The notes beneath the pieces were generated by a model. The model saw only the letters and a program-made list of their open reading frames with translations, was not told the origin of the DNA and did no database searches. The position numbers and the translations under genes were made by a program. From positions 1,820 to 65,819 of IMG/VR virus record IMGVR_UViG_3300037467_001075: a DNA stretch of 64,000 nt; one strand, given 5' to 3'. This document shows, one piece after another, positions 2,118 to 61,730 of this stretch (within the stretch, counting starts at the first letter, position 1; each line of letters begins with the position of its first letter). This DNA is from a virus. Its lineage: Duplodnaviria; Caudoviricetes.

Positions 2118-2347
2118 CTGACCATAGAGCCCCTCCTGAGTTACTGTCGAAGGATGAGGAAGCAGCACTCCTGGCTCAGGCCGAGCAACTGTGGGAGGAT
2201 CTGCAACGAAATAACCTCGGCGGTTTCTCCGGGATTAATCGTCCTTTCTACATTCTACATGAGTTCAGGAGAGTGATTGAGCAATTCGGTCATCGGGATG
2301 TTGGGCTGACCTGGTCGAAGAATGATTTGGATGCTATCCCGAAATGA
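2114..2347 (+). CDS. Hypothetical protein
   Basis: 77 aa ORF overlapping both neighbours by 4 nt. Confidence 0.6.
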   Translation: MTDHRAPPELLSKDEEAALLAQAEQLWEDLQRNNLGGFSGINRPFYILHEFRRVIEQFGHRDVGLTWSKNDLDAIPK

Positions 2348-39838: not shown

Positions 39839-40072
39839 ATGGCTAAAGAGAAACGGGATAAGCCGCCGCCTGGTGGCTGGATGGGGCCACCTCGAACAAC
39901 AGGCCTCAAAGGACTTCGTGAAGCAGTTGGATCAAAGAAAGGAAAATGGATATGGAAGGACATACCACAGAAGGCCAAGGATCGTCGACTTCGCAAGGAG
40001 TGGGAACGGCGGATGTCCAAAGCGGATGCGAAAGGGCATTGGCATTTCCCGTGGCCTCCGAAGGACGAGTAG
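39839..40072 (+). CDS. Basic hypothetical protein
   Basis: AGGAG RBS; 77 aa. Confidence 0.5.
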   Translation: MAKEKRDKPPPGGWMGPPRTTGLKGLREAVGSKKGKWIWKDIPQKAKDRRLRKEWERRMSKADAKGHWHFPWPPKDE

Positions 40073-40764
40073 TCCTAGATCATGGCTATGTGAAGTTGAG
40101 AAACCTCGCAGGTCCGACCCGGCGCCGAGACTTGGAGTTCGACGCAATTGACATCGATCCAGCTCAGGCTGCTCGAATGTCGTTCGATCAGATGGACAGT
40201 GATCGCACCTATGAGGACGATATGAAGCTTAACCGCTATCTCCTCAAGAACATGCACACCAGTCCCTTCGAAATGATTTCGGTATGGGTCGAAGTGAAGG
40301 TGCCGATCTTCGTTGACCGTCAGCTTGTCAGACATCGGACGTGGCGACGCAACGAGTCTTCCGGCCGTTACATCGTTTTGCCCGACGAGTGGTATATCCC
40401 ACAGGTTGTCGGCGGTAAGGCACCGAATGCCAAGCAAGGTCAAGCAGACACTCTTGACCAGATTACTCAATCGAAGTTCAAGACCGACTTGAACGATCAA
40501 TGCCGAGAAAGCTACGATCTTTACAAGTACTACATCGATGAAGGTGTGGCGCCAGAGCATGCTCGGATGTTTCTCCACCTCAACCACTACGTTCATTGGT
40601 TGGGCAATGTCGACTTGGGCAATATGTTCAAGTTTCTTGCCCTACGAGCTCACAGTCATGCACAGATAGAGGCTCAGGCTTATGCGTTTGCGATCATCGA
40701 TCTGCTGCGTCCTCGTCTGCCCGGTCTCATGAGCCTATTCGACGAGTTGGTGAAGCGTCCATGA
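39946..40764 (+). CDS. thyX: Flavin-dependent thymidylate synthase (probable start GTG 40051)
   Basis: LDHGYV, AARMSF, HTSPFE, PIFV.RQ..RHRTWRRNESSGRY, APE.AR, HAQ.E. Confidence 0.95.
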   Translation: MDMEGHTTEGQGSSTSQGVGTADVQSGCERALAFPVASEGRVVLDHGYVKLRNLAGPTRRRDLEFDAIDIDPAQAARMSFDQMDSDRTYEDDMKLNRYLLKNMHTSPFEMISVWVEVKVPIFVDRQLVRHRTWRRNESSGRYIVLPDEWYIPQVVGGKAPNAKQGQADTLDQITQSKFKTDLNDQCRESYDLYKYYIDEGVAPEHARMFLHLNHYVHWLGNVDLGNMFKFLALRAHSHAQIEAQAYAFAIIDLLRPRLPGLMSLFDELVKRP

Positions 40765-45467: not shown

Positions 45468-45544
45468 GGGATGCTCCGACGGTGAGGGGCCGCGGGGGGC
45501 TTGGGAGGCGGGGGACCGCGACCCCTCGTCGAGTAGAAGGTGCG

Positions 45545-45859
45545 TTAGACCTGCTGGTCTGCGGCTCCTGCCCCCGACTGATTGCCGGTCGGTGGTTGCG
45601 GCGCCTTGCGCTTGCCGCCTTGACCGAGCAGTTCGTCGTTCTGAGTGCGGCCGGGAACTTCGGCGCTGTCGGTTCCGGTGGCTTCATCGACGAAACCTTC
45701 GGATGCAGGCGCTTCGGCAGGCTGCGTCACCGAGAAGGACTTGGTCCCTTCGGCGATGTGGAAGCTGTGTTCACGGTTCGGGGCGACTTCGGTCGTCTCG
45801 CCGTCGACTTCGACGGTAGCTCCGTGAGCACGAGCCTTGACGGTAACAGTGGTCGTCAT
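45545..45859 (-). CDS. Hypothetical protein with acidic disordered tail
   Basis: AAGGAG RBS; own promoter and leader hairpin. Confidence 0.7.
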   Translation of the reverse strand: MTTTVTVKARAHGATVEVDGETTEVAPNREHSFHIAEGTKSFSVTQPAEAPASEGFVDEATGTDSAEVPGRTQNDELLGQGGKRKAPQPPTGNQSGAGAADQQV

Positions 45860-45873
45860 AGGGGGCTCCTTCT

Positions 45874-45924
45874 GTCGCATGATTGCGACGCGAGCCTTCT
45901 AACGTTTTAACGTGCCGGTGTCAA
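45874..45924 (-). promoter_or_regulatory. Sigma70 promoter with leader hairpin (copy 1)
   Basis: TTGACA-17-TAGAAG-6-GTCGC AATCAT GCGAC. Confidence 0.7.
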
Positions 45925-46460
45925 CTACCTCGAGGTGTATCGCATCCCGGATTTCTCTTACCTTGGGATATACGAGCCAAGGCCTAGGATACTCTGTCCT
46001 ATATGGGACCACAGGGATAGCAGTGAAGAAGGGTGTGCCCGCGCATACGTTGGCACCTATCTCCCTAGCTGTATGCTTGCACTCGAAGGCCATGACCAGC
46101 TCGACGCCTTCCCGTGGGAAGCAGACGAAGTATCGATCAAGGTCGGTGCGAAACTCGATGAAGGGCTTACTGCCCGTCAGTTCTACTCGCGAGACGCCTG
46201 GCACGAGTAATCCTCCCCGTTCTTGTCCTTGGTTGGGCCGGGACCCCAGAAACCGTATAAACTGCCTCGACCGCACCCTTCACCGGTGGATACAGTGAGG
46301 CCTTCCGAAGATGGTAAGTGATGCCGCCGCGAGTAAAAGACTCCTTGACATCCGTTCCCGCCCCGTGGACAATCGTGATCCGGCGTCTGCCTCGCATTGT
46401 GCACTCCATGAAAATGCGGGACCGACTGAGCCTGCACGAACAGCCGATCCCGCACCTGAC

Positions 46461-46565
46461 TTACCGCTTGATGAGCCCGAGCAGCCCATTCATGATTGCG
46501 CTGCCAAGGGCAAAGCCGAGGCCAAACACAATCGCGGCAAGGAACAACATTAACGATGGCTCCAT
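46461..46565 (-). CDS. Small membrane peptide (34 aa)
   Basis: GAGGAGG RBS; MEPSLMLFLAAIVFGLGFALGSAIMNGLLGLIKR; followed by terminator at about 46412-46456. Confidence 0.65.
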   Translation of the reverse strand: MEPSLMLFLAAIVFGLGFALGSAIMNGLLGLIKR

Positions 46566-46606
46566 TTGAGCCTCCTCTGTAGACGTCCCTCTACAGGTAG
46601 CCGAGG

Positions 46607-46768
46607 CTACTTGATTTCGGGGATTTCCACAGTGATCGACTTGGGCGCGTCCTTCTTCCCGAACGCCTTCTTGCTGATATAGAGCGAAGGGATCGGGGCG
46701 TCTTCGTCGTCGTTCTTGAAGACGTTGGTGTTCTTGGTGTCGCGCTCGAACTTCAAGGTCGTTTTCAT
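46607..46768 (-). CDS. Small beta-rich protein (53 aa, not in ORF track)
   Basis: AGGAG RBS; MKTTLKFERDTKNTNVFK...SLYISKKAF...SITVEI; strong codon bias. Confidence 0.75.
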   Translation of the reverse strand: MKTTLKFERDTKNTNVFKNDDEDAPIPSLYISKKAFGKKDAPKSITVEIPEIK

Positions 46769-47039
46769 GGTGGGCTCCTGTTGATAACCTCCTCATTATC
46801 GTTATGCAGGAGCTATATGTCAATGACCTTTATTCTCGAGGGCAGTAGCTACGCGCTCGAGCCCGTGATTGATTGCCTTCCACAGGGTGATCGCGTTTTG
46901 AGGAGGCTGGGCTCCTTCGGGCATGTTGCCGAACTCACGAAGTGCCTTCGCAAGATGACGGCAGAAAGCATCATAGTCCATACTGACCTCACTAAAATGG
47001 GGACGGCACCGAAGCACCGTCCCCGTAGTCGATCGCAGC

Positions 47040-47549
47040 TTAGGCCGTCGGGTCGGTTGCGTCGCCGCTACCCGTGTCGGTCCCGGTTCCCGTGTCCGTT
47101 CCGCCGGCGCCCGAGGTATCGGTGCCCGACGAACCCGAAGTGTCCGAACCGCTGCCCGTATCGGTACCACCCGTGGGAGCACCTGCACCGCCGCCCGTGC
47201 CCTGGTTGGCGACAGCCGCGGCAAGCGGAGCTGCATCCTGTCCGAGCTGATCGGTGATCGCCTGGACAGCAGCGACGACTTCCGTCGGATCGCTCGAGCT
47301 GTTCAAGGCATTGGCGAGCTGCGTCTGAAGACCCGTGATGAGGGCCACAGCCGATTGCTCGGTGTCGCGCACTGCCGAAACCTCGGTCTGAAGCTGTGCG
47401 AGTGCGTCTTGGATCTGCTGTTGCATATGTTTGACTTCCTTTCTCAGTTGTTGAACTTCCCGGAGAATTTCCCCGAGCACAATATCGGTACTTCTGTCCC
47501 GACCTCCTCTCTGCGGTTGAAGGATGAATAACCGCCGAAGACCTTCCAT
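47040..47549 (-). CDS. Coiled-coil protein with G/T/S/D low-complexity tail (alternative start 47426)
   Basis: Helical N-terminus then GTDTG-type repeats. Confidence 0.7.
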   Translation of the reverse strand: MEGLRRLFILQPQRGGRDRSTDIVLGEILREVQQLRKEVKHMQQQIQDALAQLQTEVSAVRDTEQSAVALITGLQTQLANALNSSSDPTEVVAAVQAITDQLGQDAAPLAAAVANQGTGGGAGAPTGGTDTGSGSDTSGSSGTDTSGAGGTDTGTGTDTGSGDATDPTA

Positions 47550-47553
47550 AAGC

Positions 47554-50262
47554 CTATCTCCCAGCTTGCCTAAGGATGTAAGCCCAAACCCTTGCGGTCG
47601 CGGCAAGCATAGCCAACGCCAGAGTCGCACAAGACTTTTGTATGCCGACCTCCATCTTGAGGCCCATGAACGTCTCCCCGGGGTTCTGTTGCCACAGACT
47701 GAAGCCTGCGACGGCTCCTTGTCCCGGCGGGAGTTCTTGTTCTGCACGAACCCATCCTTGAGGTTTGCAGCGATAGATATTGTCCATCGCGGATGATCGA
47801 TTGAGTGGCGGGATCGTCTGACCAAGCAACGTCATCGCAGGTTCACGGATCAGATCCATGAGTTGCTGCTGCAGGTCGAGTGTCCAAACGGTACCAGCCT
47901 CGGCTGCCGTGGCGAAGTCGTCGAGTTGTTGTGATGTCGTGGGCATACCTTAATCCTACACCTGCTGGTTTAAGAGGTCAACCTGTGGTTATGCCGAACC
48001 TTCGGGCTTGGTTAACGTCATTAATGCGGCACGATTACCGATTTCGATATTCTCCGACACGATCTGCATTGCCATGTCCGGCGTGATCTTGCGCTGATCC
48101 TGCAGCGCGATCAACTGGCCCACGAACTGAGACGCGATGGCCAGGATCCTCTGGTCCGCCATATTAGGAGGCATCGCTGCCTTCATATCGGCCAGAAACT
48201 TGTTGTCTTCATCGGTGGGCTGGAAGCCTCTAGTTTGCTTGTTCACGAACGGTTCCCTTGAGTGGATCGCCGCACGGCTTGGCACCGAATTGACGATACA
48301 GGTTGACGAAGCGGTCTCGGTTCGCCTGTCCTTCGAAGGCATAATGACGAACCTGACTGCCCTGAACAAATACCACAGAAATGTGCTCACCAACAATAGA
48401 GGTGTTCACGTTCTGAGGCTTCAGGCCTGTGGTCGTAGGGACCGTGGCGTAGTGAGGATCGGAGAAGGCCTGCGTTACTTTGGCCTGCCACCGCTTGCGC
48501 CACATCATGAGTTCACTCATGCGGGTTCACTCCTTGAGGTATCTCATCGCGGAAACGTTCGGGGATCGATTGATGCAGCTTCTGCCTGACGCGAAACACG
48601 TTGGCGGCAGTGTCCATGCTATCTGGATCGTTCTTGTCGAGCATCGGTAGGAAGTGATCGATGAACAGGATTAAGCTTCCCGCATCCTCGACATCGATCC
48701 TTGGGGTTATACACGCTATTTGGCCATCGATTGTTTTCTGGTTCATTCCCCGTCCTTTCAACTGAACAACAATAACGTTTCTGGAAAAACCAGGCAACTT
48801 TCTCTGGGAATTAGGTGTGAATAACTCTGGAATTTTGGATTAGGTCAATTAGACCTTGGCGCGCCACCAAAGTCCTTCCACTCCTTCCAAGGTCCAACGA
48901 TGTCGCGCTCGATGCGCTCGTCCAGGATCTTGAGGCACATCAGCTTGCCGTGTTCCTTGTGCCGTTCACCGTTTCCGGGGTTATTGGTCCATGTGCCGTC
49001 CTCATACTGGATCCAGTGACAGTCCTCTTCGAACTTGACCGTATCGCCAAACTCCTCTGCTCGCCACTCATAGTGGCGCGGCTTGTCTTGCAGCATGAAG
49101 TCGATACTGAAGCCAACGAACCAACCACCGCTGCCCATGAGGTTATTGAAGTAGGCCGGCCCTACAGTTTGAATATGGGCAAGATCAACATGGCGATTGA
49201 TGAGGCCCAAACGAACTATCATGGTCATCGTCCTAGCGAGCGGGCCCAATCGTCCGCACTCATGTTGTCCGCCGTCAAAGGCTCTTCCACAGGGCTCAGC
49301 GGATGCGTTTGATTGTGGATGTCTCGGAGGTGATCCTCGATCTGCTCAGCGAGCGACAGGTTGATCGCGCTCTTGATGCGTGACGCTTCCTTCTGTTTGA
49401 CATCGACTGCAGCCTCGGACTTCGTCAGGTGTTCCTGCGCGTAGAAACGAAACTGAATTGCTGACTTACGCAACAGCGAAATAGTCTGGTCATTCATCTT
49501 GTATCCTCTCATCTTCTGTTACAAACCCTCTCTTCGCCACAGTTCATGCACCGGGTGATGATGCGGTCTATGGTGGGCCAGAACCAACCCCGCTTGTAGG
49601 CACAACTGTCGCAGTACCGGTCGACAGGTGCTCTAGCCATGGTTGACTTCAGGCTCGTGAGCCTCACCCGGTTCTGCGGCCTTAACGTAGACCTCGTAGG
49701 GATCGCCGTCCAGGATGACGACGGCCCGCACAGAAACGGGAGGGTGAAGATTGGGAATGTATGGCTTGTTTAAGACGACTTCTGGATGAGTGTCGTCTTC
49801 AGCAACCTCGAGTCCGACCTCGAGTGCGTCCATGATGAATTGGAAATGTTCAGTCTTGCTCATGATATTGGCCCCGAGTTGAGTACGAGCTTGCCGAGCT
49901 CCTGGTAGACCTTTTCTTCAAGGTCGGACATCGCCACCAAGGTTGGCGTATCACGGATGGCACATCCGATGACTTTACGCCGGCGAGGCGATAGGGTGAT
50001 GAGCGCCTGCTTGAGGTCTTCGCTAACTCTCATAGTTCAGGACCTTCATTTCCTCGAGCCTCGCAAGGCCGAGCATGACGGCAAGAGCCTGTGCATACCC
50101 GAGCCAACGATGAGCCTTCTCGGTGTTGTCCCATCCCGTGATCGTGCGCAGCATGAAGACGAGGTGAGCTTGAGTGTTACCTTCGGGCGACTGCTCGCCT
50201 TGATCCTCGGGCGGAATGCCGAACCTCTCGAGCATTGCCGCTGCCGCGTGACTTGGTTGCAT
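47554..50262 (-). other. Cluster of about ten small hypothetical CDS (47554-47946, 47989-48246, 48230-48520, 48513-48797, 48845-49249, 49225-49512, Zn-finger 49509-49640, 49633-49863, 50023-50262)
   Basis: Head-to-tail ORFs with short overlaps and RBSs. Confidence 0.6.
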
Positions 50263-50611
50263 GCTTTGGTCCTTTCTTCGGCATCTTGGGCCGGCCTACG
50301 AATGAGACGTCGATGTTGAGGTAGATGCCGCGGCCCTTGTTACGCAGTTCTTGAGCCACAGCAGAGGATACGGGCATCAGCTCATGGCCGAGTGCAAGTA
50401 GGAACGCCTCGATTGAAGCGTAGCGCGGAAAGTGGGTCTCACCGTATAACCACTTAGAAATGGTACCGGGCGTCGGCCCGCCGCGTTCGTGGATCTGCTT
50501 CTGCGTCAGACCCGAGTTGATGAAGAGCGCGATGCAGTCGTCTCGAAGATGCTCGAGTTTTTGGTTCTGCTCACGCTGGAACGGTGTCTTTCGTTCTGAT
50601 CTGCCAAACAT
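50177..50611 (-). CDS. XRE-family HTH protein
   Basis: SGLTQKQI...TISKW..GET..P...IE..L.ALG. Confidence 0.75.
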   Translation of the reverse strand: MFGRSERKTPFQREQNQKLEHLRDDCIALFINSGLTQKQIHERGGPTPGTISKWLYGETHFPRYASIEAFLLALGHELMPVSSAVAQELRNKGRGIYLNIDVSFVGRPKMPKKGPKHATKSRGSGNAREVRHSARGSRRAVARR

Positions 50612-50676
50612 CAGGTGCCTCCTTAACGCTAGATTGTCGTCGAAGTGGCACCTGATGTCAATTCCTCTTAAACTCT

Positions 50677-51102
50677 CTATTTCTCCTGGGCTGGAAGCCT
50701 ACGGGCCTCGGTGATCGGGATGCCGGCTTCCGTCGGCACATAGATCAACTGGGCATGGGTGTTCTCATATGCCTGGATCGTCAGGTATCGGAGATAGCCA
50801 TCCGGTCCGCCGAGCGAGTTCTGCAAGATATGGTTGGCCTGCGCTGCACCCTTCGCTCGAGTCACCTCGGCTTCTGCGAGGAATTGCGCTGACTCCATCT
50901 TCTGCTTCGCCTCCAGTGTGGCGACCTGACGGGATGACTGCGCTTCGGCGAGCTTTGCGCGGCCCGACATTTCCTGGGAGTAGACGCCGTAGCGCGGACA
51001 GCCGACCATTGCGAGGATCGCCAGGACGATCAACGGTGCGAGGATCCACTTGATGATCCAGGTCGCCAGACCGGCAACCGGTACTTCTTCTTCGTATCTC
51101 AT
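50677..51102 (-). CDS. SPFH/band-7-like membrane-anchored protein
   Basis: TM helix, G.A.LA.A, RAKG.A.AN, YLRYL, IYVPTEA..PI.EA. Confidence 0.75.
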   Translation of the reverse strand: MRYEEEVPVAGLATWIIKWILAPLIVLAILAMVGCPRYGVYSQEMSGRAKLAEAQSSRQVATLEAKQKMESAQFLAEAEVTRAKGAAQANHILQNSLGGPDGYLRYLTIQAYENTHAQLIYVPTEAGIPITEARRLPAQEK

Positions 51103-53328
51103 TCTTTCACTCCATGATGCTCAGTCAGACTATCGACCCACTCTTTGCCGCTGAGCTTGACATAGGTGGTGGTTGGTAGAAGCAGGACGACCTGATAATC
51201 CACAGGTAGGTAGATGACAGGCCAGTGAAGTCCGCCTTCGAGGATCGAGTAGCCGATGATGTGGAAGCTTCGGCCTTCCTCCTCGACTAGGCTGTGATGA
51301 TCGACGCGGCAGATCGTGTCCTCACGCCTAGGTAGCTCGAAGACGTTGCCAACCTCGAGGCTGCCGACGGGGATCCACTGCCGCTCATACTTGCTCATCG
51401 AGGTTTCACTCCATACTTGAGGATCTTCTTGCAGTTGCTGCAGAACTTGACGCCATACTGCTTGATGGCTTTATGCTCTGAGCAGACGCATTTACCCTTC
51501 TTTTTCTTGGCCATCACCAACCGCCTCAGGCAGAGTGTAGACGACACGCTCCGTCTCGACCGTCATCCGGAACTCCTGAGTCCGGCTCAAGTGGTCCATG
51601 GTCAGAGTGTAGGCATGGGGAACGACGAACTTGACTACGCCGCCCTTCTGCTCGCAGTCGCGGATCCAGACGTCGAGCTTATGCGCCTCGACGAAGGCCA
51701 TGTGCAGACGATCAGTGACCATCAGTCGCGTCCGAACCCGAGGGGTAGGTCCATGTCGCTCAGACCTTCGAGTGATGACAGGTCGGGCTCGAGGTCAAGA
51801 TCTTCAATGGCCTGGAGCTTCTCGCCCATGGGAGAGTCGGCGAGGTTCTCGGGAAGGTTGTCCTTCCAATCGACATACTCCTGCTTGACCTCCTGAAGCG
51901 CCTCGAGCGCATTCTCGAGTTCTTCCTTCGCTGTCTCGACTCGCTGAGCACACTCTGTCCAACGATCTGCTCGCGACTGCCTCCTCTTACGTCTTGCCAT
52001 TAGTCGTCTCCGTATGGTGATAGAGCTCCACTTGTCAATCGTTTTGGTGGACTGCCGGTGCGGCGCCACTCTTCGGCTTCGTTCGGGGTGATGAACCCGC
52101 GCCTGACCATCGAGAGGATGTGCTCGTCTTCCTTGTGGCGCTTGATGAGTTGGCCAAGTGCAAGACCCACGCCGATGGAAACGCCTATTGCCGCGGCGAT
52201 CACGATTGCTACCGTGCTCATGTGAGTTTCTCCTGGTACTTGAGAGTGGCGGTGTCGTCGTTCATGATAACACAGCCTCGCACTTCCGGGAATACCCGCT
52301 TCCCACACTCTGGGCAGTAGGAGGGAAACCGTGGATTGACCCAGCAGGCCAAGAAGTTACAGCAAGGCATCTGGATCAGGCGGAAGTGAACCCGCTCAGT
52401 CGTCATCTGCATCTAACTCCGGCCATCGAACTACACCTGCTTGGGGTGCATAGGCCCTCACAGCAATGCAAGCTACTCCTTGAACACCAATACCGGGCAG
52501 CTGCAGTAACTCCTCAAGTGTCTGGTGCTCCGGATGTTTGACACCAGCAGTCTTCAACGCCGCCACAGTGCGAGCAGGTAGACGTCGGGTCAGGGCAATG
52601 AAGCTCCGAGGCATCTTGATGTGCTGGGTGGCCTTCATTATCCGCAAGCACTCGCGCAGATGAGTATTGAGTGCCCGCAACGCATCCTTGACCTCGCGGT
52701 CCCGAGCGTTCTGAGCCTTCGCGTTCTGCGCTGTGGGATGAACTGCATAGACGCAGCGCGCCCGTTCTGCTGCCTCGCACTTGACCATCAGTGTGGTCAC
52801 GAGGTCGTCCGTGCTGATGTCTCTCATTGACTGTGTCCTAATTGCTTGCCGATAGTCTTGGTTTCGACCTCGGCTGTGGGATCATCGTCGCGGGAGAAGA
52901 ATGCTTGGGTGCTTCGACAGCTACCGCAAGTTACCTTCTCCTTGTTCTTGGTGATCTGGAGCTGATGACCGAGCGGCAATCTTCGGGACGCCATGTTGCA
53001 AGCAGTCCAGAAAATCGGATAGTGGAGGTGGACTTTAGTCATTGTAGAACCGGTTGCCGTCGCGGTCGAATAGATCCTCGAGTGCGCAGAATGCTATTAT
53101 CTCCGCGCCGTGAAAGACACCCACACATTCTCCGAGGCAGTGGGATCCTCCATTCAGGCTCTGCTCTTCCTCGAGCGTCAAGCGGCGGAGAGTGACTTGC
53201 GGTATTCCTTCGCCGGGCTTCTTGCCTTCGAAGACTTCGCCGAAGTGTTTGCGTTGCATATCAGTTACCTCCTGATAGTTAAGTGTATCAGGACTGGATG
53301 CTGCGGGCAACCGAGACATCCCATGCAC
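51099..53328 (-). other. Cluster of small hypothetical CDS (51099-51398, 51492-51722, 51722-52000, 52000-52221, Zn-ribbon 52218-52412, 52824-53042, 53035-53328)
   Basis: Head-to-tail ORFs; several CxxC pairs. Confidence 0.6.
52396..52827 (-). CDS. Protein with C-terminal RNA polymerase alpha-CTD-like (HhH) domain
   Basis: LPARTVAALKTAGV...LEELLQLPGIGVQG...I. Confidence 0.6.
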   Translation of the reverse strand: MRDISTDDLVTTLMVKCEAAERARCVYAVHPTAQNAKAQNARDREVKDALRALNTHLRECLRIMKATQHIKMPRSFIALTRRLPARTVAALKTAGVKHPEHQTLEELLQLPGIGVQGVACIAVRAYAPQAGVVRWPELDADDD

Positions 53329-53459
53329 GGATCAACCAGTGACACGTAATTACATGACTCTCATTTTCCAAGCTATATAAGATGGGACCAGGTGCGTGGG
53401 ATACGTTCATGGCCCGGTTTTTTGGACGGGGCGGTCATGAACGCAGGCGGGTTAATTTA

Positions 53460-53570
53460 TTAAGGCAGGACGTTCGATAGCGTGGTCATGGTGTGATAGA
53501 AGTTCGACAGCAACGGGATCAGACAGTAGAACACGTAGAGCGGAACAGCGATTTGAACAATGCGGATCAT
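53460..53570 (-). CDS. Small hydrophobic peptide (36 aa, not in ORF track)
   Basis: AAAGGA RBS; MIRIVQIAVPLYVFYCLIPLLSNFYHTMTTLSNVLP; own TTAA-type promoter at 53599-53630. Confidence 0.6.
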   Translation of the reverse strand: MIRIVQIAVPLYVFYCLIPLLSNFYHTMTTLSNVLP

Positions 53571-53638
53571 GGTCAGTTCCTTTCGTTTCGATGTTCACAG
53601 TATACATGCAACAGGTTAAGGAAGTGTTACGGGTTGAA

Positions 53639-53758
53639 GAAAAAAGATGCGCGTCAGTGAAGGTCACATTACGGAACACGACGGATGCACAGGGCATTTC
53701 ATGTAACGCGCATCAGAGGCAGGTTGTGTCGCGCACAACGGACAGTCATGCGCGACAC
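53639..53758 (-). ncRNA. Structured 3' UTR / candidate sRNA ending in terminator
   Basis: 14-bp hairpin plus 11-bp stem enclosing about 47 nt, then T7. Confidence 0.45.
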
Positions 53759-53767
53759 GTAACGGCA

Positions 53768-54058
53768 TTAGGCGTCGGTCGTTTCGACGTTCGCCTTTTT
53801 CGTCGACTTGCGCGAACGCGCAGGACGAGCGATTTTGGCGGCGTAGGTAGTATCGAACGCGGCGCGGATTGCATCATATTCGCGTTGATTGTTCGCAACC
53901 CATGAAGTGTTGCGAATGTGCGATGCAACCTTCGAACGCAAACGCGAACGGATTTGTTTGTCGTTCAACGTGAACGACTTGTTATCCTTGTGCGCGTCGT
54001 TGATGATCGACTTGAGCACAATCGGGAACGTCGTTGATTTACGTGCAGGCATGTTCAT
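53768..54058 (-). CDS. Basic early protein, divergent member of the HTH paralogue family
   Basis: LNDKQIRSRLR...W; AAAGGA RBS; promoter with leader hairpin. Confidence 0.7.
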   Translation of the reverse strand: MNMPARKSTTFPIVLKSIINDAHKDNKSFTLNDKQIRSRLRSKVASHIRNTSWVANNQREYDAIRAAFDTTYAAKIARPARSRKSTKKANVETTDA

Positions 54059-54069
54059 TTCCTTTCATC

Positions 54070-54120
54070 GTCGCGTCATTGCGACAATCACAATATGCGC
54101 GCAATCTATTAACAAATCAA
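54070..54120 (-). promoter_or_regulatory. Sigma70 promoter with leader hairpin (copy 2)
   Basis: TTGATT-17-CATATT-6-GTCGC AATGAC GCGAC. Confidence 0.75.
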
Positions 54121-54160
54121 TAAGCCATTTCTTTTTTCTCTGTCTCGTATTGGGACGGAA

Positions 54161-54615
54161 TATGGTTAAGGATTTCGGCGGTTCGGCTTAACCATAAAGT
54201 CGTCAGCGGGTGGGCCAGCCACGTCTGGACTATCTGTTCTGGACGTTCCGCTGCGCTCTGGCTGGACCAACCATGGTTTGGCTAATCTTGCGGTTGGGCC
54301 AACCAAGCCTTACCCGGGCTATACAGTTGAAGGTGTAGGTGCAGATAGATCCATATGGCCAGCACGCAGATTATTGCCCACAGCGCACCCGTCCTTATGG
54401 ACATATAGTCTGGTTGGGCCAACTGACACGTAATAAGTTGTCAGCATTGCGAGCACCTGTCTACTTCTGCATCAAGTCTTGCTGTAGAGAAGTTGGTCAG
54501 AGTACTGGCTGGTCCATACCCGTCCTATACAGTTGCAGGCTATACAGCTCTACCTAGTCTATCACGTAATTACGTGGCTCATATTGGCCCGTCTCTCGGC
54601 TGGTCCAGCTGGTCT
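54161..54615. repeat. Non-coding island of short palindromic repeats (candidate origin or packaging/terminus region)
   Basis: Six TGGNCCA, three CTATACAG, palindrome CACGTAATTACGTG, inverted repeat TATGGTTAAG/CTTAACCATA. Confidence 0.7.
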
Positions 54616-54735
54616 TTTCTCCCCTAAAATCACGATCCTGATCTGCATAGATCCAATCCTGTTACGGGTTTGCCCATGCGCGAACAGTCCAGTTGTTGTA
54701 GTTTTTGTAGGTTTTTACTCAAGATTTGTTCCGTA

Positions 54736-54764
54736 TTGACACTAAGGCGCTCTTCCTGTAAAAT
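54736..54764 (+). promoter_or_regulatory. Sigma70 promoter
   Basis: TTGACA-17-TAAAAT. Confidence 0.75.
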
Positions 54765-54868
54765 GCCATACGGAAATACCAATCTGGTCCTATTTCGGCA
54801 CTACTCTTGAGTGAAAAACCGCGAAATCGACAATCTGGTGTGTATATAGCGCTAGGAAAAACTACAAG

Positions 54869-55426
54869 ATGGAAAAATCTACAAGACGAAATGTCAAAGT
54901 GAAAATCCGGAAGCCAAAACTGGATGTAGACGAGTTCAATGCTCTGACGGATGTTCTATTCGAGCTCTTCAAAGAGAATGGCTCAAAGTGCGCCTACATG
55001 CTGGACATTTCTCGATCTACCTGGACAAAATGGACGACGAACCCTCCCCGGCAATGGTGGTGGAACTTGGTGCTCCGAGACGTCATCAAGTCTGCGATCA
55101 CAGGTCTTCACGGACGCAGAGGCTTCACAGCACGACACAGGCGCAAGGTGATGGAAGCGCTACAGCGAGTTCCACAGAGCGAAGAGTTTCTCGGCGTGAT
55201 AGAGGCCGAAACTTACAGTGTCGATGGCGCAGCTAATTTCTTACGCTTAACCCTCGGGCGGAAGGGAATGTTCTGGGACGAGCTCCGGAAGCCTGCAAAC
55301 TGCGGCGGCTATACGGAACGCGCGCTCCGAAAGGCAGCACGGATGATTGGGGTAGTCAAGACGCAGGAAGGTTTCGGCGACAACAAGCGCAGCTATTGGC
55401 GGCTGTCGAACGAGGACGACGACTGA
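54869..55426 (+). CDS. DNA-binding protein: N-terminal HTH plus C-terminal winged helix related to the primase-helicase C-terminus
   Basis: CAYMLDISRSTW; AANFL...L...RALRKAA...GV.K...G...W.L. Confidence 0.7.
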   Translation: MEKSTRRNVKVKIRKPKLDVDEFNALTDVLFELFKENGSKCAYMLDISRSTWTKWTTNPPRQWWWNLVLRDVIKSAITGLHGRRGFTARHRRKVMEALQRVPQSEEFLGVIEAETYSVDGAANFLRLTLGRKGMFWDELRKPANCGGYTERALRKAARMIGVVKTQEGFGDNKRSYWRLSNEDDD

Positions 55427-56604
55427 CCTATCGGCCGATGAAGTACCCTGCAGCTCCAGCGATCAGCACACATGACAGCAGGAAGACGTAGTGCTTGAAC
55501 TTGAGACCGCGGAAGAAGCCTAGACGAGCGAACAGCCACAGGATCCCGAGCCCGACGACTGTTCCAATGCCTCCGAGGATCGTTTGACCGAAAGCCTTTT
55601 GGCTATGCGATGTTGCGGCGATTGCGAGTCCAGAGACCTCATTCACCACGAGCAAGAATGCGAGGAACTTATACTTCATGATAGACTCCCTACGAACATT
55701 AAGGCCATGAGGCCAAAGAAGAATGCGAGCACGGCGATTTCGTCACGGGTGAAGGTCATAGCCTGTACTTCGCTTTCCGCGACTTGTTCCATAGCCTGAC
55801 AAATCGCCGCAATTCGTCCTGCGTGTAGCCCGAGAGCTCTTCGTCGAGTTGATCGACGCGCATCTGCAGGTCTTCAGCGTATTCGAGCTCGGCGCCTTCC
55901 AAGTCCTGCTTCAGCAACAGTCGCTTGAGCTTCTTGTCGAGGTCACGGCGCTCGAGCACCATGTTGCCCATCGCAATTTCGTTGGCTGTGGCCTTTTCGA
56001 GTTCGGTGCGCTTGTCCTTGCGCTTCGCGTCGGCTTCCCGACGGTACTTGCCCGAGTAGATATTCTTCAGGTTCTCGTTGATGCGCCGGCGAAGCTCACG
56101 TTCCCGTTCTTGCTTGTCGGTCGTGTTATACCCGAACGCATGGTCTCTGAAGATGCTCACGACGGCTCCTTGATCTGGAATGGGATCAGCGTCATAGCGC
56201 GACGGCCGTGAAGTTCGCCGTAAGCGTCGGCCTGCCGGATGACGTCTTCGGGACTGTCGCCCATGAATGAGGTTCCGTAGGCGTTCACGAACCAGGGATC
56301 CACGAACGTTACGACCAATCCGTCCATAGGAAACGACAGGTCCATGATGTTGGGATCATTCCTCATGCGGACATCTCGGGCGCGAACGGCACGGTCAGCT
56401 CGTTGCCGTATTGGCCGACGAAGCGGAAGCATTCGTCATCGGATCCAACGTCCATATGGAAGTTCAGGATCGTTCCGCCCGGCAGGTGAACACCAATGTC
56501 CCAGACTTCGTCACCCTCATGGACATCGATGCGCGGTGCATCGGGATAGTACCGACGGAACTCGGAACGGAGGTAAGCATGGACATCAAACATTTCAAGT
56601 CTCC

Positions 56605-56655
56605 ATCGCGTTGTTGCGATACGGACATTATATGCGCGTGGCTACCAGCATGCAA
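56605..56655 (-). promoter_or_regulatory. Sigma70 promoter with leader hairpin (copy 3)
   Basis: TTGCAT-17-TATAAT-6-ATCGC AACAAC GCGAT. Confidence 0.75.
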
Positions 56656-57696
56656 CCATTATTCGCCAGTGATTTCTTCACCATCATCGTCTGGATGATA
56701 ATCTTTCCAGAGCGACAGGAACGGCTCAGTCAAGACGATGCCGGGATCATCGACATCCTTTCCGCATAGCAGTTCCATGTAGAGCTCGAATAGACCACGA
56801 GCACCCTCGCAGTCGTTCATCTGCACGAACAGACTCTCTACGATCTGGTCGGACAGCTGCCGTTCACGTTCAAGACGGCGTTGAATACGACCATGTCCGC
56901 CGGGCAACGGCTGCGAACGGATCTGTTTCAATTCCTCATAAGGCTCTAATGGCATTGCGTCCTCCAGTTCTTCTCCATCTGGACGGCCGTGTCATAAGCG
57001 TCCTGTGGATCCGTTGTGTAGTATGCGACGGCTTCCTCGCGATCCTTCGACAGACCGCGGAACGTTACCCGCAATTCATCAGGGTCGAAGGTCTCGAGCC
57101 GAGCCTTCACATGCGGGAGCTTGTTGATTTCCGTCACGGCATGGGTCTTGAAGCGGATTTCCATCATATCACCCACAGATGAATACGCAGCAGGTCTCGG
57201 CGACGGCCTGAGCAATCGGATAGATCAGCTCAGGACGATCATCGCCATATCCGCGGCGCACATGATATTGGAGAACGGCACCCGCGTCGATTGCGGCCTT
57301 GCAATCATCACCACAGGTGCTGTCGAGCGGCATGGAGCTGAGCGCGTCACGGACGGATTGGTCCGAGTGACACCCAAGATAGTCGTGAAAGGCTATCTCG
57401 AAATAATCGCGCACGGTCATTAGCAGCTTCCCACGGGCCATGCGCCGCAATCGTTAGCGAACGCGGACTCGGCCTGCGCGGTGCGGAAGTCGAGTTCGGC
57501 CTGTTGTTCGATGTAGTTGACGGCAAGCGGCCGTTCGGTGCGATGAGCAACCACGTTGCCGGAGTTGCGGATCACATAACCGTCGCCCGTGCGTTCGATC
57601 TGATAATGAACGCCGGTCTCGTTGCACCGGAAATCGTCGAGACGGTCAGACAACTTGCGGCAGGTAAAGGTCACGGACATGGTCAATTCCTTTCGT

Positions 57697-57747
57697 GTTG
57701 CGTCGTTGCAACCTGGACATTATACGATCCTGGTGACTATCAATCAA
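57697..57747 (-). promoter_or_regulatory. Sigma70 promoter with leader hairpin (copy 4)
   Basis: TTGATT-17-TATAAT-6-GTTGC AACGAC GCAAC. Confidence 0.8.
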
Positions 57748-58488
57748 CTGTCCAATTCTGATTTATCCTCGACCCGAGGACCAATGACCTTCAGCCCAAG
57801 CTTGATTGAGTAGGTCTCGAAGCTTCTTCGCATTGTCAGCGCGGGTTCGTGTTGCGACTACGTAGCGATCACCGCCCAGCGGTGCACGATAGACGACTGC
57901 GTAGACATCAGGATCAACACCGGCGAGCTCTCCCGCAACTGCCTCATACGGGCTATACAGCTTCGTAGATCGTTTGATAGCCGCGTCATGGAGTGACTTG
58001 CTGTCGTGCTTGTCCATCACTACGCTACGTTGTCTTGGCACGTTGCGCCTCCAAAGCTTTCTTCCACAGGAATTCTGTGCACTCGTTGCCCGGGTGATGA
58101 TACGGCGTGGCTTCGAACCCAGCCTCTACAGCTCTCGATACGCAGGTATCACACAGCCAAACGTTGGGTGCGGATATCTTACGCAGACAGCCGGCGCACT
58201 CATTCGGTTCGGGATCAAACGTCGTCATCACGGACCAATCTCGCGAACCGCGAACGGTCGCCATGCTTGTTGTAGAAGTAGACGTGGATGATGAACGGCT
58301 CATCACCATCGTCGAGTTCATATCTGAACTCAAGTTCACCGAGTGGCGGATGCTCATCTGTGGAGATATACGCATCGGCCCGATCCTGCAACAGCTCACG
58401 CAGTTCTTCGAGCGTCTCGACATCGTAGTGCCCCGGTCCACCAACCTTATGGGACTTTTGAACTATCCAACGGGTCTTCATATGTTCC

Positions 58489-58986
58489 TCACTTGATCCC
58501 GACCAATTTCTTGATCTTCGCCACTTCCTTCGGTGCGAACGCCCAACCATATTCAGGCTTCTCGAAGTTCGCTCGCAATATCGCTCGCGCATCGCTCGCA
58601 GCGACGCCTGAGGCAGCGCACAGCTCAGTGATCGTCACGTAACCGTCAGGACGCTGCGCTCGTGATACACGCTTAGCCCCCGGGCGGTCCTTCGACGCCT
58701 TGGCGTCAGCGACCTCGGGCTCATCCTTCACATGCACCTCATCCCATGTGCCATACTTGAAGCGAAGGATCCATTGCAGGCGTTCGTCCGGCAGTTGCCA
58801 GTCGGTCGACGGCGCAGCACGGATCTGATCCATCTGCTGCGATTTGACAGTGAACCCCTCGGGCAGGTTGTGCTCCATTCGCTCGAGCCATACCTTAGCA
58901 TGGGATGCGTCGTCGAACTTAACGATGTGGTCACGCGGATAGATATCCGGTGCTCGGTGACCTCGGGCATAGAGAACGAACGTCAT
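58489..58986 (-). CDS. DNA-binding protein with C-terminal HTH (paralogue of 38284-39006)
   Basis: LRFKYGT and GYVTITEL...AR..LR...KPEYGWAF. Confidence 0.75.
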   Translation of the reverse strand: MTFVLYARGHRAPDIYPRDHIVKFDDASHAKVWLERMEHNLPEGFTVKSQQMDQIRAAPSTDWQLPDERLQWILRFKYGTWDEVHVKDEPEVADAKASKDRPGAKRVSRAQRPDGYVTITELCAASGVAASDARAILRANFEKPEYGWAFAPKEVAKIKKLVGIK

Positions 58987-58996
58987 AGCTTTCTCC

Positions 58997-59047
58997 GTCG
59001 CGTGATTGCAACATGGGCATTATGAATGTGCGGATGCCAAGAGTCAA
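58997..59047 (-). promoter_or_regulatory. Sigma70 promoter with leader hairpin (copy 5)
   Basis: TTGACT-17-CATAAT-6-GTTGC AATCAC GCGAC. Confidence 0.8.
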
Positions 59048-59645
59048 CCGCTTATTTCTGTCATGCGGGTCATCAGCAACTCAATGGTCCGCTGCAGGAT
59101 CAAGAGCTCTGTGGTGTTGCCCGCCAGACCGATCATACCCTTCTCATACGGATGGTTATTGATGAGCTGGGTATCCTCGTGGCGAGACTTGATGCCTAAG
59201 CTTTCACTCTCGCCCATTGCTACGCAGACTGCCATGCCTTCGACGAAGCCCGCGCCGACCACAGGTGCAGTTCCTCGTTCGAGCATTTGCTCGAGCTGTC
59301 GCGGTCGTAGATCCTTCTTGGGATCGTTCGCTTCGATCACCAACTGCATAGCGCCGGCGACGAACGAATGGACCAAGTCGTCTGGAAAGATGACCGGCAC
59401 GAACCGATCCCGTTCCAGATCGTGCAGCATGATATACTTCCAAGCCATTACAGACCCCTCATCGCTTCCTTAACCTTGTTCTGGATGTCATCCCATTGCT
59501 CAGCAACTTGAGCAGCGTCACCGTGAGAGATATCTATCTCTTCCTGGATGATCGCAGTGCGGATGGCCTTCTCTGCTTCCTTGATGTCCGTGTAGGTGAC
59601 ATCATCCACAATGAAGGCCATGGTCTTGACGACCTTCGGCATCAA
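59044..59645 (-). other. Two hypothetical CDS (59044-59448, 59448-59645)
   Basis: Coupled ORFs; first has PVIFP..LVH, GAGF, GESESL motifs. Confidence 0.65.
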
Positions 59646-60502
59646 CGTATCTCCTTCCTGAGCTGAACGCTGTCGCCGGCGGCAAAGCCTGCGCTCGATC
59701 CGCTTCCCATCGGTAGTCTGCGAGGCCGAGGCCCCTTGCGTCGAGCTGCTGCTCGAGCATCCTTCTTGCGCTGAGCCTCGAGTGCCTTGTCTTCCTGCTC
59801 GCGTTCGTAGGGCGTCAGTGCAGCGCGGCGTTCTTCTTCCCGGCGCTGACGTTCGAGACGCTGCTGCTCCCAGCGGGCCTCTTCTTCCGGCGTCGGCTTG
59901 TAGTAGTCCGCAATCTCCTGGCGCAGGGTCTTGAAGTAGTCCTGAACCACGAGCGCTGTCGAACCTGTGGTCTTCTGAGCCACTTCGTTGTTGAACTGCA
60001 TTTCCCGCATCAGCTTGATGGCTCGCTCATTAACGCGGTATGCACAGGCAGCTTTGAACGTGCGGCGATACTCCGCCCGAGCAGCTTGCGTCATTCCGCG
60101 AGGCAGACTCTGCTTGTAGAGCAACTCGACCTGACGCATGAGCCAGAACGCAGTCTGTTCAGCGAGCTCGATGTTCTCCTCGCGGCCGATGAAGTAGCAG
60201 CCGCTCTTGCCGTGATTGTAGGTGTAGAGCTCGCAGCCATACAACTCGCCGGCTGCTTGGAACGCGAGGACCTGGTGTATCTTCCAGGCCTGATTGAAGG
60301 CTTTCTTCGTTGCCTTCCGCTTCGTAGTACCGCCTGTGGCGGCTTGGATCGACGACAGTTCGATACCCAAACGGGTAGCGATTGCCGCGGCCATGGACAT
60401 TGCCGTTTCCTGCTCGTCCTCTGAACAGCCGTTCTCGACGGTCATGTTCATCAGCTTCGCTATCTTGGCTTTGGCCTTGGCGATTTCTTCAAGATCGGAC
60501 AT
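59642..60502 (-). CDS. DUF2786-family protein
   Basis: KI.KL......G.SE.E...A N-terminus; C-terminal G..AG..V.L. Confidence 0.75.
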   Translation of the reverse strand: MSDLEEIAKAKAKIAKLMNMTVENGCSEDEQETAMSMAAAIATRLGIELSSIQAATGGTTKRKATKKAFNQAWKIHQVLAFQAAGELYGCELYTYNHGKSGCYFIGREENIELAEQTAFWLMRQVELLYKQSLPRGMTQAARAEYRRTFKAACAYRVNERAIKLMREMQFNNEVAQKTTGSTALVVQDYFKTLRQEIADYYKPTPEEEARWEQQRLERQRREEERRAALTPYEREQEDKALEAQRKKDARAAARRKGPRPRRLPMGSGSSAGFAAGDSVQLRKEIR

Positions 60503-60513
60503 CGTTATCCTCC

Positions 60514-60564
60514 GTTGCGTGATTGCAACCTGTAGGTTATCGCATAGTGGTCACCGGCGATCAA
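60514..60564 (-). promoter_or_regulatory. Sigma70 promoter with leader hairpin (copy 6)
   Basis: TTGATC-17-GATAAC-6-GTTGC AATCAC GCAAC. Confidence 0.75.
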
Positions 60565-60594
60565 CTCGCCAGTGCCACTATATTCTGCGACCGG

Positions 60595-61287
60595 TTACTT
60601 GAGGATCTTGGCGATTGCCGCCTTCGCCGACTTCGGGAACGTCCAGCGTTCACCCTTGACAGGCTTCGGATAGTTGTCCTTGCCTTCGTAGCGGCGCATC
60701 TTCGCTCGAGCGATCTTCGGGTCGATGTTGAGTTCGCGGGCGATGTCGGCGACTGTGACTTCATCCGCGTTCTTCTCCCGTGACTTGGCAGTCTTGCCTT
60801 CGGCCTTGCGCTTCGCCTGCTTGTCGGCGATGTGCTGCTTCTGGCGCTTGCCCTTCGCAGTCTTCGGATCGAGGTCACCCTTGCGGCGCTTCGCCTCGTC
60901 CTTGATCTGCTGCTTGTCCTCGGGACTGAGCTGTGCAGCTTCGGCCTTCTTGTCCTTCTTCTCCTTCTCGCGAATGTCGCGGACTGCCTTGCGAGAATGA
61001 TGAGCATAGCTTTCCGTGTCGAGACCGCGAGCGAGTGACGGCTTGCCGTTCGTCTTCGTCGGTTCCTTCTTCGGTGCCGGCTCCTCGACGGGACGAGCTG
61101 CAGCGACCTCAGGATCTTCGATCACGGGCTCAGCGTCAGGATTTGCGCCGGGCAGTGCGTCGGTGAAGCCTGCGTCCTCGAGTGTCTTCACCGCTTCGTC
61201 GAGCTTTGACTGATCGGCTTTCCATGCCTTCAGTTCTTTCTTACCCGCGTTGACGCGCAGGCGGTTTAACTTCGCCAAGTCGTTCAT
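60595..61287 (-). CDS. Lys-rich protein with C-terminal HTH
   Basis: VTVADIARELNIDPKIARAKMR...PKP...WTF; GGAGG RBS. Confidence 0.75.
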   Translation of the reverse strand: MNDLAKLNRLRVNAGKKELKAWKADQSKLDEAVKTLEDAGFTDALPGANPDAEPVIEDPEVAAARPVEEPAPKKEPTKTNGKPSLARGLDTESYAHHSRKAVRDIREKEKKDKKAEAAQLSPEDKQQIKDEAKRRKGDLDPKTAKGKRQKQHIADKQAKRKAEGKTAKSREKNADEVTVADIARELNIDPKIARAKMRRYEGKDNYPKPVKGERWTFPKSAKAAIAKILK

Positions 61288-61302
61288 TTGATGTGCCTCC
61301 AC

Positions 61303-61357
61303 ATTGCGTCGTGATTGACGCAACTGCCACTATAAACACCTGGCAACCCGGCGTCAA
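61303..61357 (-). promoter_or_regulatory. Sigma70 promoter with leader hairpin (copy 7, longer stem)
   Basis: TTGACG-17-TATAGT then TTGCGTC AATCAC GACGCAA. Confidence 0.8.
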
Positions 61358-61471
61358 TCGACTATTTGCCACTACTGGCATTTTCTGGTGCAGATTAAGT
61401 CAGGATGCGGTGGTTGACGAACGGTGACCAGTGCGCGATTATATGACTTCCACTGAGAGGAGGTGATGTGT

Positions 61472-61588
61472 ATGCTTCCAGGTCCGAATGATCCGCCCGG
61501 CACGGGTGACTCACCGGAACCCGTTGAGACCCCGAGCGATGAGCCCGATACGTCTCATCCCGACCCTCAGCCTGATACGAACGACTGA
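61472..61588 (+). CDS. Acidic Pro-rich peptide (38 aa, not in ORF track)
   Basis: TTGACG-17-GATTAT promoter, SD AGGAGGTGAT; MLPGPNDPPGTGDSPEPVETPSDEPDTSHPDPQPDTND. Confidence 0.6.
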   Translation: MLPGPNDPPGTGDSPEPVETPSDEPDTSHPDPQPDTND

Positions 61589-61730
61589 TCGCCGGCGCCG
61601 CGGAGTGCATCAATGACCTGGATCAAAACCTTGCCCCGAACATTCGCCTGATCTACGCGGGGCTCAAGACGGATCAGGACCCCTTCGAGTCTACCAAACG
61701 AGGGTCTCATGCCAGGAAAGCATGGGACCC

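Follow-up and report, generated by a model that had tools for sequence, protein, structure and literature searches.

What is the role of a small hairpin that recurs at the predicted start of one early phage transcript after another? The question is raised by the IMG/VR virus record IMGVR_UViG_3300037467_001075 (65,819 nucleotides (nt) in total), of which we analysed bases 1820-65819; this stretch of 64,000 nt is called the window and its numbering is used throughout. On its minus strand, seven sigma70-type promoters are each followed by a hairpin with a C-AAYVAY-G loop and then by a ribosome-binding site. We find that the pairing of the stem is under selection, and that the base of the stem, not the loop, holds a fixed distance to the promoter. 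Judged from the sequence comparisons described below, the hairpin is a new, well-supported RNA motif that is absent from Rfam, and it probably protects or co-regulates early messages.

Seven promoter-hairpin units and the pairing of their stems

The seven units share one layout on the minus strand: a TTG(A/C)NN -35 box, 17 nt, a -10 hexamer, 4-6 nt, a stem of 5-8 base pairs (bp) closing a C-AAYVAY-G hexaloop, a ribosome site of the GGAG/AAGG type and an ATG. The -10 hexamers are TATAAT (twice), CATAAT, CATATT, TATAGT, GATAAC and TAGAAG, and the loops are AATCAC (three times), AATCAT, AATGAC, AACAAC and AACGAC. A preliminary description of this DNA, made from the sequence alone, had listed seven such hairpins, and all of its strings were reproduced exactly, at the same coordinates, on the minus strand. 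It had also placed six of the seven stems exactly 6 nt past the -10 box, which we confirmed; the seventh, at 61304, has a stem of 7-8 bp that begins at 4-5 nt.

In unit 1, the promoter (61329..61357; TTGACG and TATAGT) is followed by a hairpin at 61303..61324 with the arms GTTGCGTC and GACGCAAT around AATCAC (8 pairs, the outermost G-U; minimum free energy (MFE) -13.5 kcal/mol) and, after GGAGG, by the gene of a basic protein of 230 amino acids (aa) at 60595-61287 (ATG 61287). Unit 2 combines a promoter at 60536..60564 (TTGATC, GATAAC) with the hairpin GTTGC AATCAC GCAAC at 60514..60529; GGAGG abuts the stem, and the ATG at 60502 opens the gene of a 286-aa DUF2786/DUF7168 protein. The promoter of unit 3 (59019..59047; TTGACT, CATAAT) precedes GTTGC AATCAC GCGAC (58997..59012), which contains one U-G pair and is abutted by GGAG, and the gene of a 165-aa protein (58489-58986, ATG 58986). 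Unit 4 (promoter 57719..57747; TTGATT, TATAAT) carries GTTGC AACGAC GCAAC at 57697..57712 with AAGG 5 nt on and an ATG at 57680, and unit 5 (promoter 56627..56655; TTGCAT, TATAAT) carries ATCGC AACAAC GCGAT at 56605..56620, the commonest stem of the family, with abutting GGAG and an ATG at 56593. The hairpin of unit 6, GTCGC AATGAC GCGAC (54070..54085; promoter 54092..54120, TTGATT and CATATT), can be extended to 8 pairs (54067-54088) and heads the gene of a 94-aa basic protein (53768-54052, ATG 54052). Unit 7 has a weak -10 box (promoter 45896..45924; TTGACA, TAGAAG) and the hairpin GTCGC AATCAT GCGAC (45874..45889), followed 3 nt on by AAGGAG and by an ATG at 45859.

The arrangement exceeds chance. 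The core GYAAYVAYGC gave 10 matches compared with 3.33 ± 1.71 in shuffled sequences, and 0 of 100 shuffles reached 10. When all 65,819 nt of the genome were scanned for AAYVAY loops on stems of at least 4 pairs, 12 matches were obtained, and the minus-strand matches with at least 5 pairs were the seven promoter-linked sites only. When the predicted leaders were folded by RNAfold, the hairpin started at nucleotide 1 and the ribosome site was unpaired in all seven (MFE -5.6 to -13.5 kcal/mol, z -1.4 to -3.4), where +1 positions are, here and below, predictions from the -10 location and promoter geometry. A covariance model, built from a 63-row alignment that includes the seven window sites, scored these sites at 17.1-30.8 bits; the next match in the window reached 11.7 bits (E 0.95), and one site read on its opposite strand reached 9.2 bits.

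We then asked whether the pairing itself is selected, using a larger family set. From the early clusters of 10 contigs, 114 CAAYNAYG cores were collected, of which 67 had a promoter score of at least 7 and a ribosome site; 64 remained after three were dropped by eye as false (G007p 5860, G007p 409 and G014 17348). This filter fixes only the closing C-G pair and leaves four stem positions free. The 64 sites comprise 41 distinct 16-mers, and the covariation test was carried out on the four free stem positions of 63 distinct rows (alignment A1) against 500 shuffles. Paired cells amounted to 90.8% versus 73.9 ± 1.2 in the shuffles, double-sided changes to 49 cells versus 10.5 ± 2.7, and the covariation score was 0.452 versus 0.142; for each of these measures, 0 of 500 shuffles attained the observed value. 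When the partner column was displaced by 1-3 columns, pairing was 46% at most. Each free position shows three to four Watson-Crick pair types (for the third pair, C-G 39, U-A 11, G-C 5 and U-G 2), and in the variants TGTGC/GCACA, CATGC/GCATG and GATGC/GCATC several letters are altered in both arms. Site 60514 (GTTGC...GCAAC) illustrates the exchange, as its orthologue in the 92% relative G002 is ATCGC AATAAC GCGAT behind an almost unchanged promoter. The compensatory stem changes that the preliminary description had noticed among seven sites are a property of the family. Among the checks that it had proposed, a covariation analysis gave a strong signal and the comparison with Rfam returned no family, with 0 matches at the gathering threshold for the whole window and 0 at E ≤ 1 for 45500-61600.

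The hairpin lies at the predicted transcript start. The base of the stem lies 4-7 nt past the -10 box in most of the 64 sites, and the first stem base is a purine in 60/64 and the preceding base a pyrimidine in 49/64, a purine after a pyrimidine being the usual signature of a start site. The distance from the -10 box to the loop is 11 nt in 34/64 sites and ranges from 7 to 18 nt. At the 14 sites with a distance of 13-18 nt, 12 stems reach back to the predicted +1 or +2, where 5.8 were expected from shuffled 5' extensions (RNAfold from the predicted +1); five of these 12 belong to one orthologous class. A loop farther from the -10 box comes with a longer stem, and therefore the predicted first base is still paired. 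The extended stems are often bulged and contain internal mismatches, as in TGTC-G-ATGC...GCAT-GACA and in the orthologues of the 94-aa gene of unit 6, whose stems span 11-12 positions (CATCGA-A-ACGC...GCG-A-TCGATG). The observation of the preliminary description that stem length varies under a constant loop extends from the window to its relatives, where the stem is lengthened as the loop moves away from the promoter. Downstream, the core of the ribosome site follows the 3' arm by 0 nt in 30/64 sites and by 1 nt in 8/64, and in 35/64 the first stem base and the start codon are 26-29 nt apart. The leader consists of the hairpin, the Shine-Dalgarno sequence, a spacer and the AUG with no spare nucleotides. 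A ligand of the hairpin would be in contact with the ribosome site.

Constraint on the element is highest in its central six bases, whose orientation is the same in 64/64 sites. The loop has 6 nt throughout (64/64, where the filter demands AAYNAY), its last base is C in 62/64, its fourth position is free, and AAUAAC (24/64) and AACAAC (6/64) are among its forms. We also scanned the same clusters without regard to the loop, starting from 38 strong promoters (at least 9/12, with a ribosome site downstream). A perfect hairpin of at least 5 pairs starting 4-8 nt past the -10 box was found at 18 of them, and 14 of these 18 have AAYNAC loops, so that the loop preference is not an artefact of the filter. 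Two of the 18 are alternative folds of AATGAC sites, G014 26523 combines the standard stem GTCGC/GCGAC with the loop ATTTC, and G014 14548 has an unrelated 7-bp hairpin at +1. The other 20 promoters have some imperfect hairpins and some none (for example 50661, 47981 and 46823 in the window). On this outcome, the preference for the loop is strong without being absolute, and many but not all of these promoters have a hairpin at +1.

Distribution among related phages

A search with the primase identified five related viral contigs with 99, 92, 68, 64 and 39% identity, the first four of which bear the motif on the early strand. The 16-mer ATCGC AATAAC GCGAT, present 8 times in the 68% relative, was then searched as an exact string in the viral contig collection and gave 55 matches in 54 stretches. 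Of these, 20 have a sigma70-like promoter that ends 4-8 nt ahead of the 16-mer, together with a ribosome site and a start codon; 6 were borderline by these criteria, and the remainder fell into three groups of unrelated, apparently coding contexts. The further genomes behind the good matches have 4-13 copies each, clustered on one strand, and they share with the window a 56-76% identical primase and several early proteins (tblastn). With 7-13 promoters per genome carrying it, the hairpin element is, by these sequence comparisons, a hallmark of a clade of uncultured 59-67 kilobase (kb) siphophages.

The nearest cultured phages are the Brevundimonas phages Strzyga and Polewnik (capsid 68%, primase 54%). 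The motif is absent from both, and the hairpin is for this reason a trait of a sub-clade and not of the whole group. The early promoters of Strzyga carry instead a conserved unpaired leader (TATGAT GTCTTC ATCAAC...AAAGGAC): in ON529867.1 9000-29500, eight of them share TATGAT GTCTTC ATC(A/G)A... with AAAGGAC ahead of the start codon. The same GTCTTC-AT start is also found in contig G008, which has the hairpin.

Among 50,697 phage records, no match was found by megablast for 54000-62000 or by tblastn for the 230-aa first-gene protein. The 20-mer formed by the 16-mer and GGAG had one match in 185,579 prokaryote genomes, in a Verrucomicrobia metagenome-assembled genome, where it has no promoter context and lies, by eye, inside a coding stretch; it therefore provides neither a clue to the host nor a sign of a host regulon. 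In the literature searched, supplements excluded, no description of the hairpin element or of transcription in this clade was found.

Two further observations concern the units of the relatives. In contigs G011 (L106) and G013 (L108), a 16-mer unit heads a gene of ~110 aa that immediately precedes the genes of the small and large terminase subunits, and the hairpin module is thus not restricted to early regions everywhere. In contig G003, the 47 nt upstream of units 62569 and 64102 (L037 10552-10583 and 12085-12116) are identical, which suggests recent duplication or recombination between cassettes.

The early region and candidate partner proteins

PHROG matches across the window outline the gene layout of a siphovirus: the minus strand at ~14-38 kb encodes terminase, portal, tape measure and tail proteins, and the window further contains a DNA polymerase at 2344-4947 (+) that matches PHROG polymerase families other than the T4 type, a primase-helicase at 61731-63647 (-), and an exonuclease, an annealing protein and a helicase. 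Two thymidylate-synthase-like genes and a dCMP deaminase (552-2117 and 39946-40764, +) indicate that the phage DNA may contain a modified pyrimidine. The GC content of the window is 51-61% and no tRNA genes were found in it. The minus strand between 45.5 and 61.4 kb contains some 45 small open reading frames (ORFs), almost none with a family match, and is by this composition a typical early region. Only one strong intrinsic terminator was found on the early strand (46999-47024, -; 11-pair stem with 8 G-C, then a T run), and it divides the six upstream hairpin units from unit 7, whose hairpin lies downstream of it.

Several other elements were noted in this region. The stretch 54150-54730 is free of ORFs and is flanked by the minus-strand promoter at 54120 and a plus-strand promoter at 54736. 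Within it, the 13-bp palindrome GGYTGGNCCARCC occurs five or six times (5 matches versus 0.44 expected), alongside a 26-nt direct repeat. The palindrome is present in six relatives, mostly close to the orthologue of the 94-aa gene, and the stretch is a candidate origin or protein-binding array. The promoter at 54736-54764 (+; TTGACA-17-TAAAAT, 11/12) is the best sigma70 match of the region; it opposes the early genes, has no hairpin and lies ahead of an ORF at 54869-55426 (+) for a basic 185-aa protein that is kept in five relatives (25-48% identity). Another promoter without hairpin (50611-50661, -; TTGACA-17-GACAAT) heads the sole helix-turn-helix gene recognisable by Pfam (50177-50611), a gene that the relatives lack. 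This promoter is bracketed by an 11-nt inverted repeat, CATCAGGTGCC / GGCACCTGATG, which spans the -35 box and the start codon.

The conserved early proteins of 230, 286 (DUF2786/DUF7168), 165, 88, 92, 94 and 93 aa were considered as possible partners of the hairpin. Five of the seven first-gene products had no match in PHROGs or Pfam; all matches of the 286-aa protein are to domains without known function, and for unit 4 the 86-aa product, searched against PHROGs only, had none there. A C-terminal domain of ~50 aa appears to be common to the 230-, 165- and 94-aa proteins and a 240-aa protein (38284-39006, +), two of them by eye only, and to recur in the 16-mer genes of the otherwise different contigs G011 and G013. 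Weak BLAST links connect the 165-aa protein to the 240-aa protein and to these 16-mer genes (E 0.024 to 8e-6). The 165-aa family has 93 metagenomic homologues, and the AlphaFold model of the window protein (mean predicted local distance difference test score 80.4) has an alpha/beta domain at the N-terminus and three helices in its C-terminal domain. For the latter, the best fold matches are small DNA-binding domains of MerR, RacA and pSK1-Par, all below significance (Foldseek prob 0.66-0.69, E above 0.6); the best structural alignment (VIA-align) had Z 4.3 and a root-mean-square deviation of 2.3 over 49 aligned residues. Foldseek returned none at E ≤ 0.001, VIA-align none at Z ≥ 5, and a sequence search of the PDB nothing below E 0.4. 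A lead to HTH_59 in the protein atlas (0.79) was discarded, as it lies below a level that shuffled proteins also reach.

Possible roles of the hairpin

The explanation that we favour, with moderate confidence, is that the hairpin is a shared 5'-terminal leader module of early messages which shields their 5' end. Host sigma70 RNA polymerase would start at the first stem base, and each early transcript would for this reason begin with a stem-loop of 5-11 bp and zero unpaired 5' nucleotides, with C-G as the pair next to an AAYNAC hexaloop and the ribosome site directly behind the stem. The fold would act in cis on the RNA: the paired 5' end would block 5'-end-dependent decay by the RppH/RNase E route and the abutting ribosome site would be left free. 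In addition, a protein may read the preferred loop. That 5'-terminal base pairing stabilises Escherichia coli mRNA is established background, reportedly from work by Emory in 1992, by Bouvet and Belasco in 1992 and by Bricker and Belasco in 1999. The stabilisers of ompA and papA resemble our element in keeping the pairing rather than the stem sequence and in a short leader before the ribosome site, and by prediction our stem-loop would likewise begin no more than 1-2 nt from the 5' end; they differ in that here one module with a preferred hexaloop and a commonest 16-mer is used on 7-13 promoters per genome. Passages of a review state that RppH requires unpaired 5' nucleotides (PMC3997798). The preliminary description had spoken of an RNA tag at the extreme 5' end of early mRNAs; the base-paired single strand at the predicted first base and the fixed orientation support that part, whereas its analogy with boxB found no support, as set out below.

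Several points weigh against this explanation. The starts on which it relies are derived from the -10 boxes. As the 64 sites include many orthologues or duplicates, the shuffle statistics overstate independence. There is no enrichment of G-U pairs: the preliminary description had argued for the transcript strand from the one mismatch being a G-U pair, which is true in the window, but the 64 sites hold 4 G-U versus 9 A-C/C-A cells and the argument does not carry over to the family. At -5.6 to -8.2 kcal/mol, stems of 5 bp have little stability, strong early promoters without hairpin exist (the three in the window named above), and the cultured relatives manage without the motif. Since few terminators lie between the units, read-through transcripts would carry internal copies that do not shield. 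Finally, a passive shield needs neither a fixed loop nor a fixed stem sequence, and yet the commonest stem, ATCGC/GCGAT, accounts for 29/64 sites and one 16-mer recurs at 15/64, across contigs whose primases are 56-76% identical.

This constancy suggests that a protein also reads the hairpin, as do the preferred loop and the abutting ribosome site. That one protein, possibly among the conserved early proteins made from these messages themselves, recognises C-AAYNAC-G on all 7-13 messages and switches their translation or decay jointly is a possibility that we put forward tentatively. Taken as the whole explanation, an RNA operator, in which a trans-acting protein of phage or host reads the C-AAYNAC-G loop and jointly switches early translation or stability, appears rather unlikely. 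It would account for the AAYNAC loops of 14 of the 18 hairpins in the loop-blind scan, for the final loop C and for the ribosome site within 0-1 nt of the stem at 38/64 sites, since a protein bound to a stem that abuts the ribosome site would affect translation or stability, and candidates are available among the conserved early proteins without assigned function. However, the domain shared by these candidates weakly resembles a small DNA-binding winged helix and none of them was recognised as RNA-binding, the fourth loop position is free, and G014 26523 keeps the stem under a different loop while G014 14548 has an unrelated hairpin at +1.

The full loop of the T4 gene 43 operator begins AAUAAC, the loop form that 24/64 sites have here. 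In the text of PMC3014915 that deals with T4 and RB69, the gene 43 operator loop is given as UAAC, with CAAC as a variant from systematic evolution of ligands by exponential enrichment (SELEX) and with the 3' AC as critical; our loops end in AC at 62/64 sites and in UAAC or CAAC at 30/64, which is a further point for recognition by a protein. As far as those passages describe it, the T4 operator is likewise a phage hairpin that precedes a ribosome site and is linked to it in function, but it is a single element ~40 nt before the start codon and is bound by a T4-type polymerase. Here the element is multi-copy at predicted transcript 5' ends; the seven copies precede unrelated early genes and none precedes the polymerase gene. 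The promoter-early stem-loop (PeSL) cassettes of the T4-type phages RB49 and phi1 (PMC2839356) bring together a stem-loop and a strong sigma70-like promoter with a Shine-Dalgarno sequence and a start codon ahead of small early genes, and are similar to our units as repeated cassettes that head small early genes without known function. The PeSL stem-loops are described there as terminators, mostly between or over the -35 and -10 boxes or upstream of them and often with G/C tracts, and their loop is not conserved, whereas the hairpin of the window is short (5 pairs), lies at predicted +1, lacks a U tract and has a fixed loop. Recombination and module shuffling are also ascribed to the repeated promoter/Shine-Dalgarno sequences of PeSL cassettes; here, the near-identical duplicated units of G003 are the one hint of such an activity.

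The opposite view, that the site acts as DNA, had been offered in the preliminary description as a palindromic operator. Phage winged-helix proteins would bind the dyad at +1 to +16 and shut off or autoregulate the early promoters. The site does overlap the predicted start point, its commonest form is the perfect inverted repeat ATCGC-N6-GCGAT, and its stem sequence is more conserved than RNA pairing requires; moreover, the 230-, 165- and 94-aa first-gene proteins share the C-terminal domain with the weak DNA-binding fold matches, and each such gene retains its own stem variant across relatives. Nevertheless, independent half-sites would resemble the shuffles, and the observed arms covary; conservation is highest in the asymmetric spacer, which never changes orientation, bulges in the extended stems break the dyad register, and the distance of the loop from the promoter ranges over 7-18 nt while the stem base is fixed. 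The fold matches are all below significance, and the separate, ordinary-looking GGYTGGNCCARCC palindrome array would suit such proteins. We consider a DNA operator improbable, and the sequence evidence favours a folded 5'-terminal RNA over it. To our knowledge, none of the boxes of IHF, DnaA, LexA, CRP or the LacI type, the Hfq ARN motif or the MS2 and PP7 operators fits the element.

Two further possibilities received very little weight. The lambda boxB consists of a 5-bp stem and a GNRA-like pentaloop, and a boxB-like tag that loads an N-type antiterminator onto early polymerases, the first suggestion of the preliminary description, would agree with the hairpin and its conserved A-rich loop that each promoter's nascent early RNA would carry. 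The loop here is, however, a hexaloop; the position at +1 and the abutting ribosome site leave no room for a boxA, for which no pattern search was made; the early strand has no series of terminators to override but a single strong one, with the seventh hairpin promoter beyond it; and no arginine-rich N-like protein was recognised by eye. We regard antitermination as very improbable. Still less credence is given to a -10-like element in the initially transcribed DNA that would cause a sigma70-dependent promoter-proximal pause, with incidental pairing. AATAAC, at +6 to +11, shares 4/6 letters with TATAAT, but the position that corresponds to the critical T(-7) is the last loop base, a C in 62/64 sites, for which reason this element was rejected; it would also leave the covariation of the flanks unexplained.

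If the favoured explanation of a 5'-terminal shield is true, an undescribed and strongly covarying RNA motif would define the early regulon of a widespread clade of 59-67 kb siphophages and would provide a clean natural case of phage early messages that start with a paired 5' end, as well as a compact 16-nt leader part for expression design. If a protein reads the loop, the strong conservation of the loop would offer a handle to fish out a factor that controls early expression in a clade without a cultured member, and the system would be a hairpin-addressed counterpart of T4 RegA that reuses a loop like that of the gene 43 operator in a large uncultured clade.

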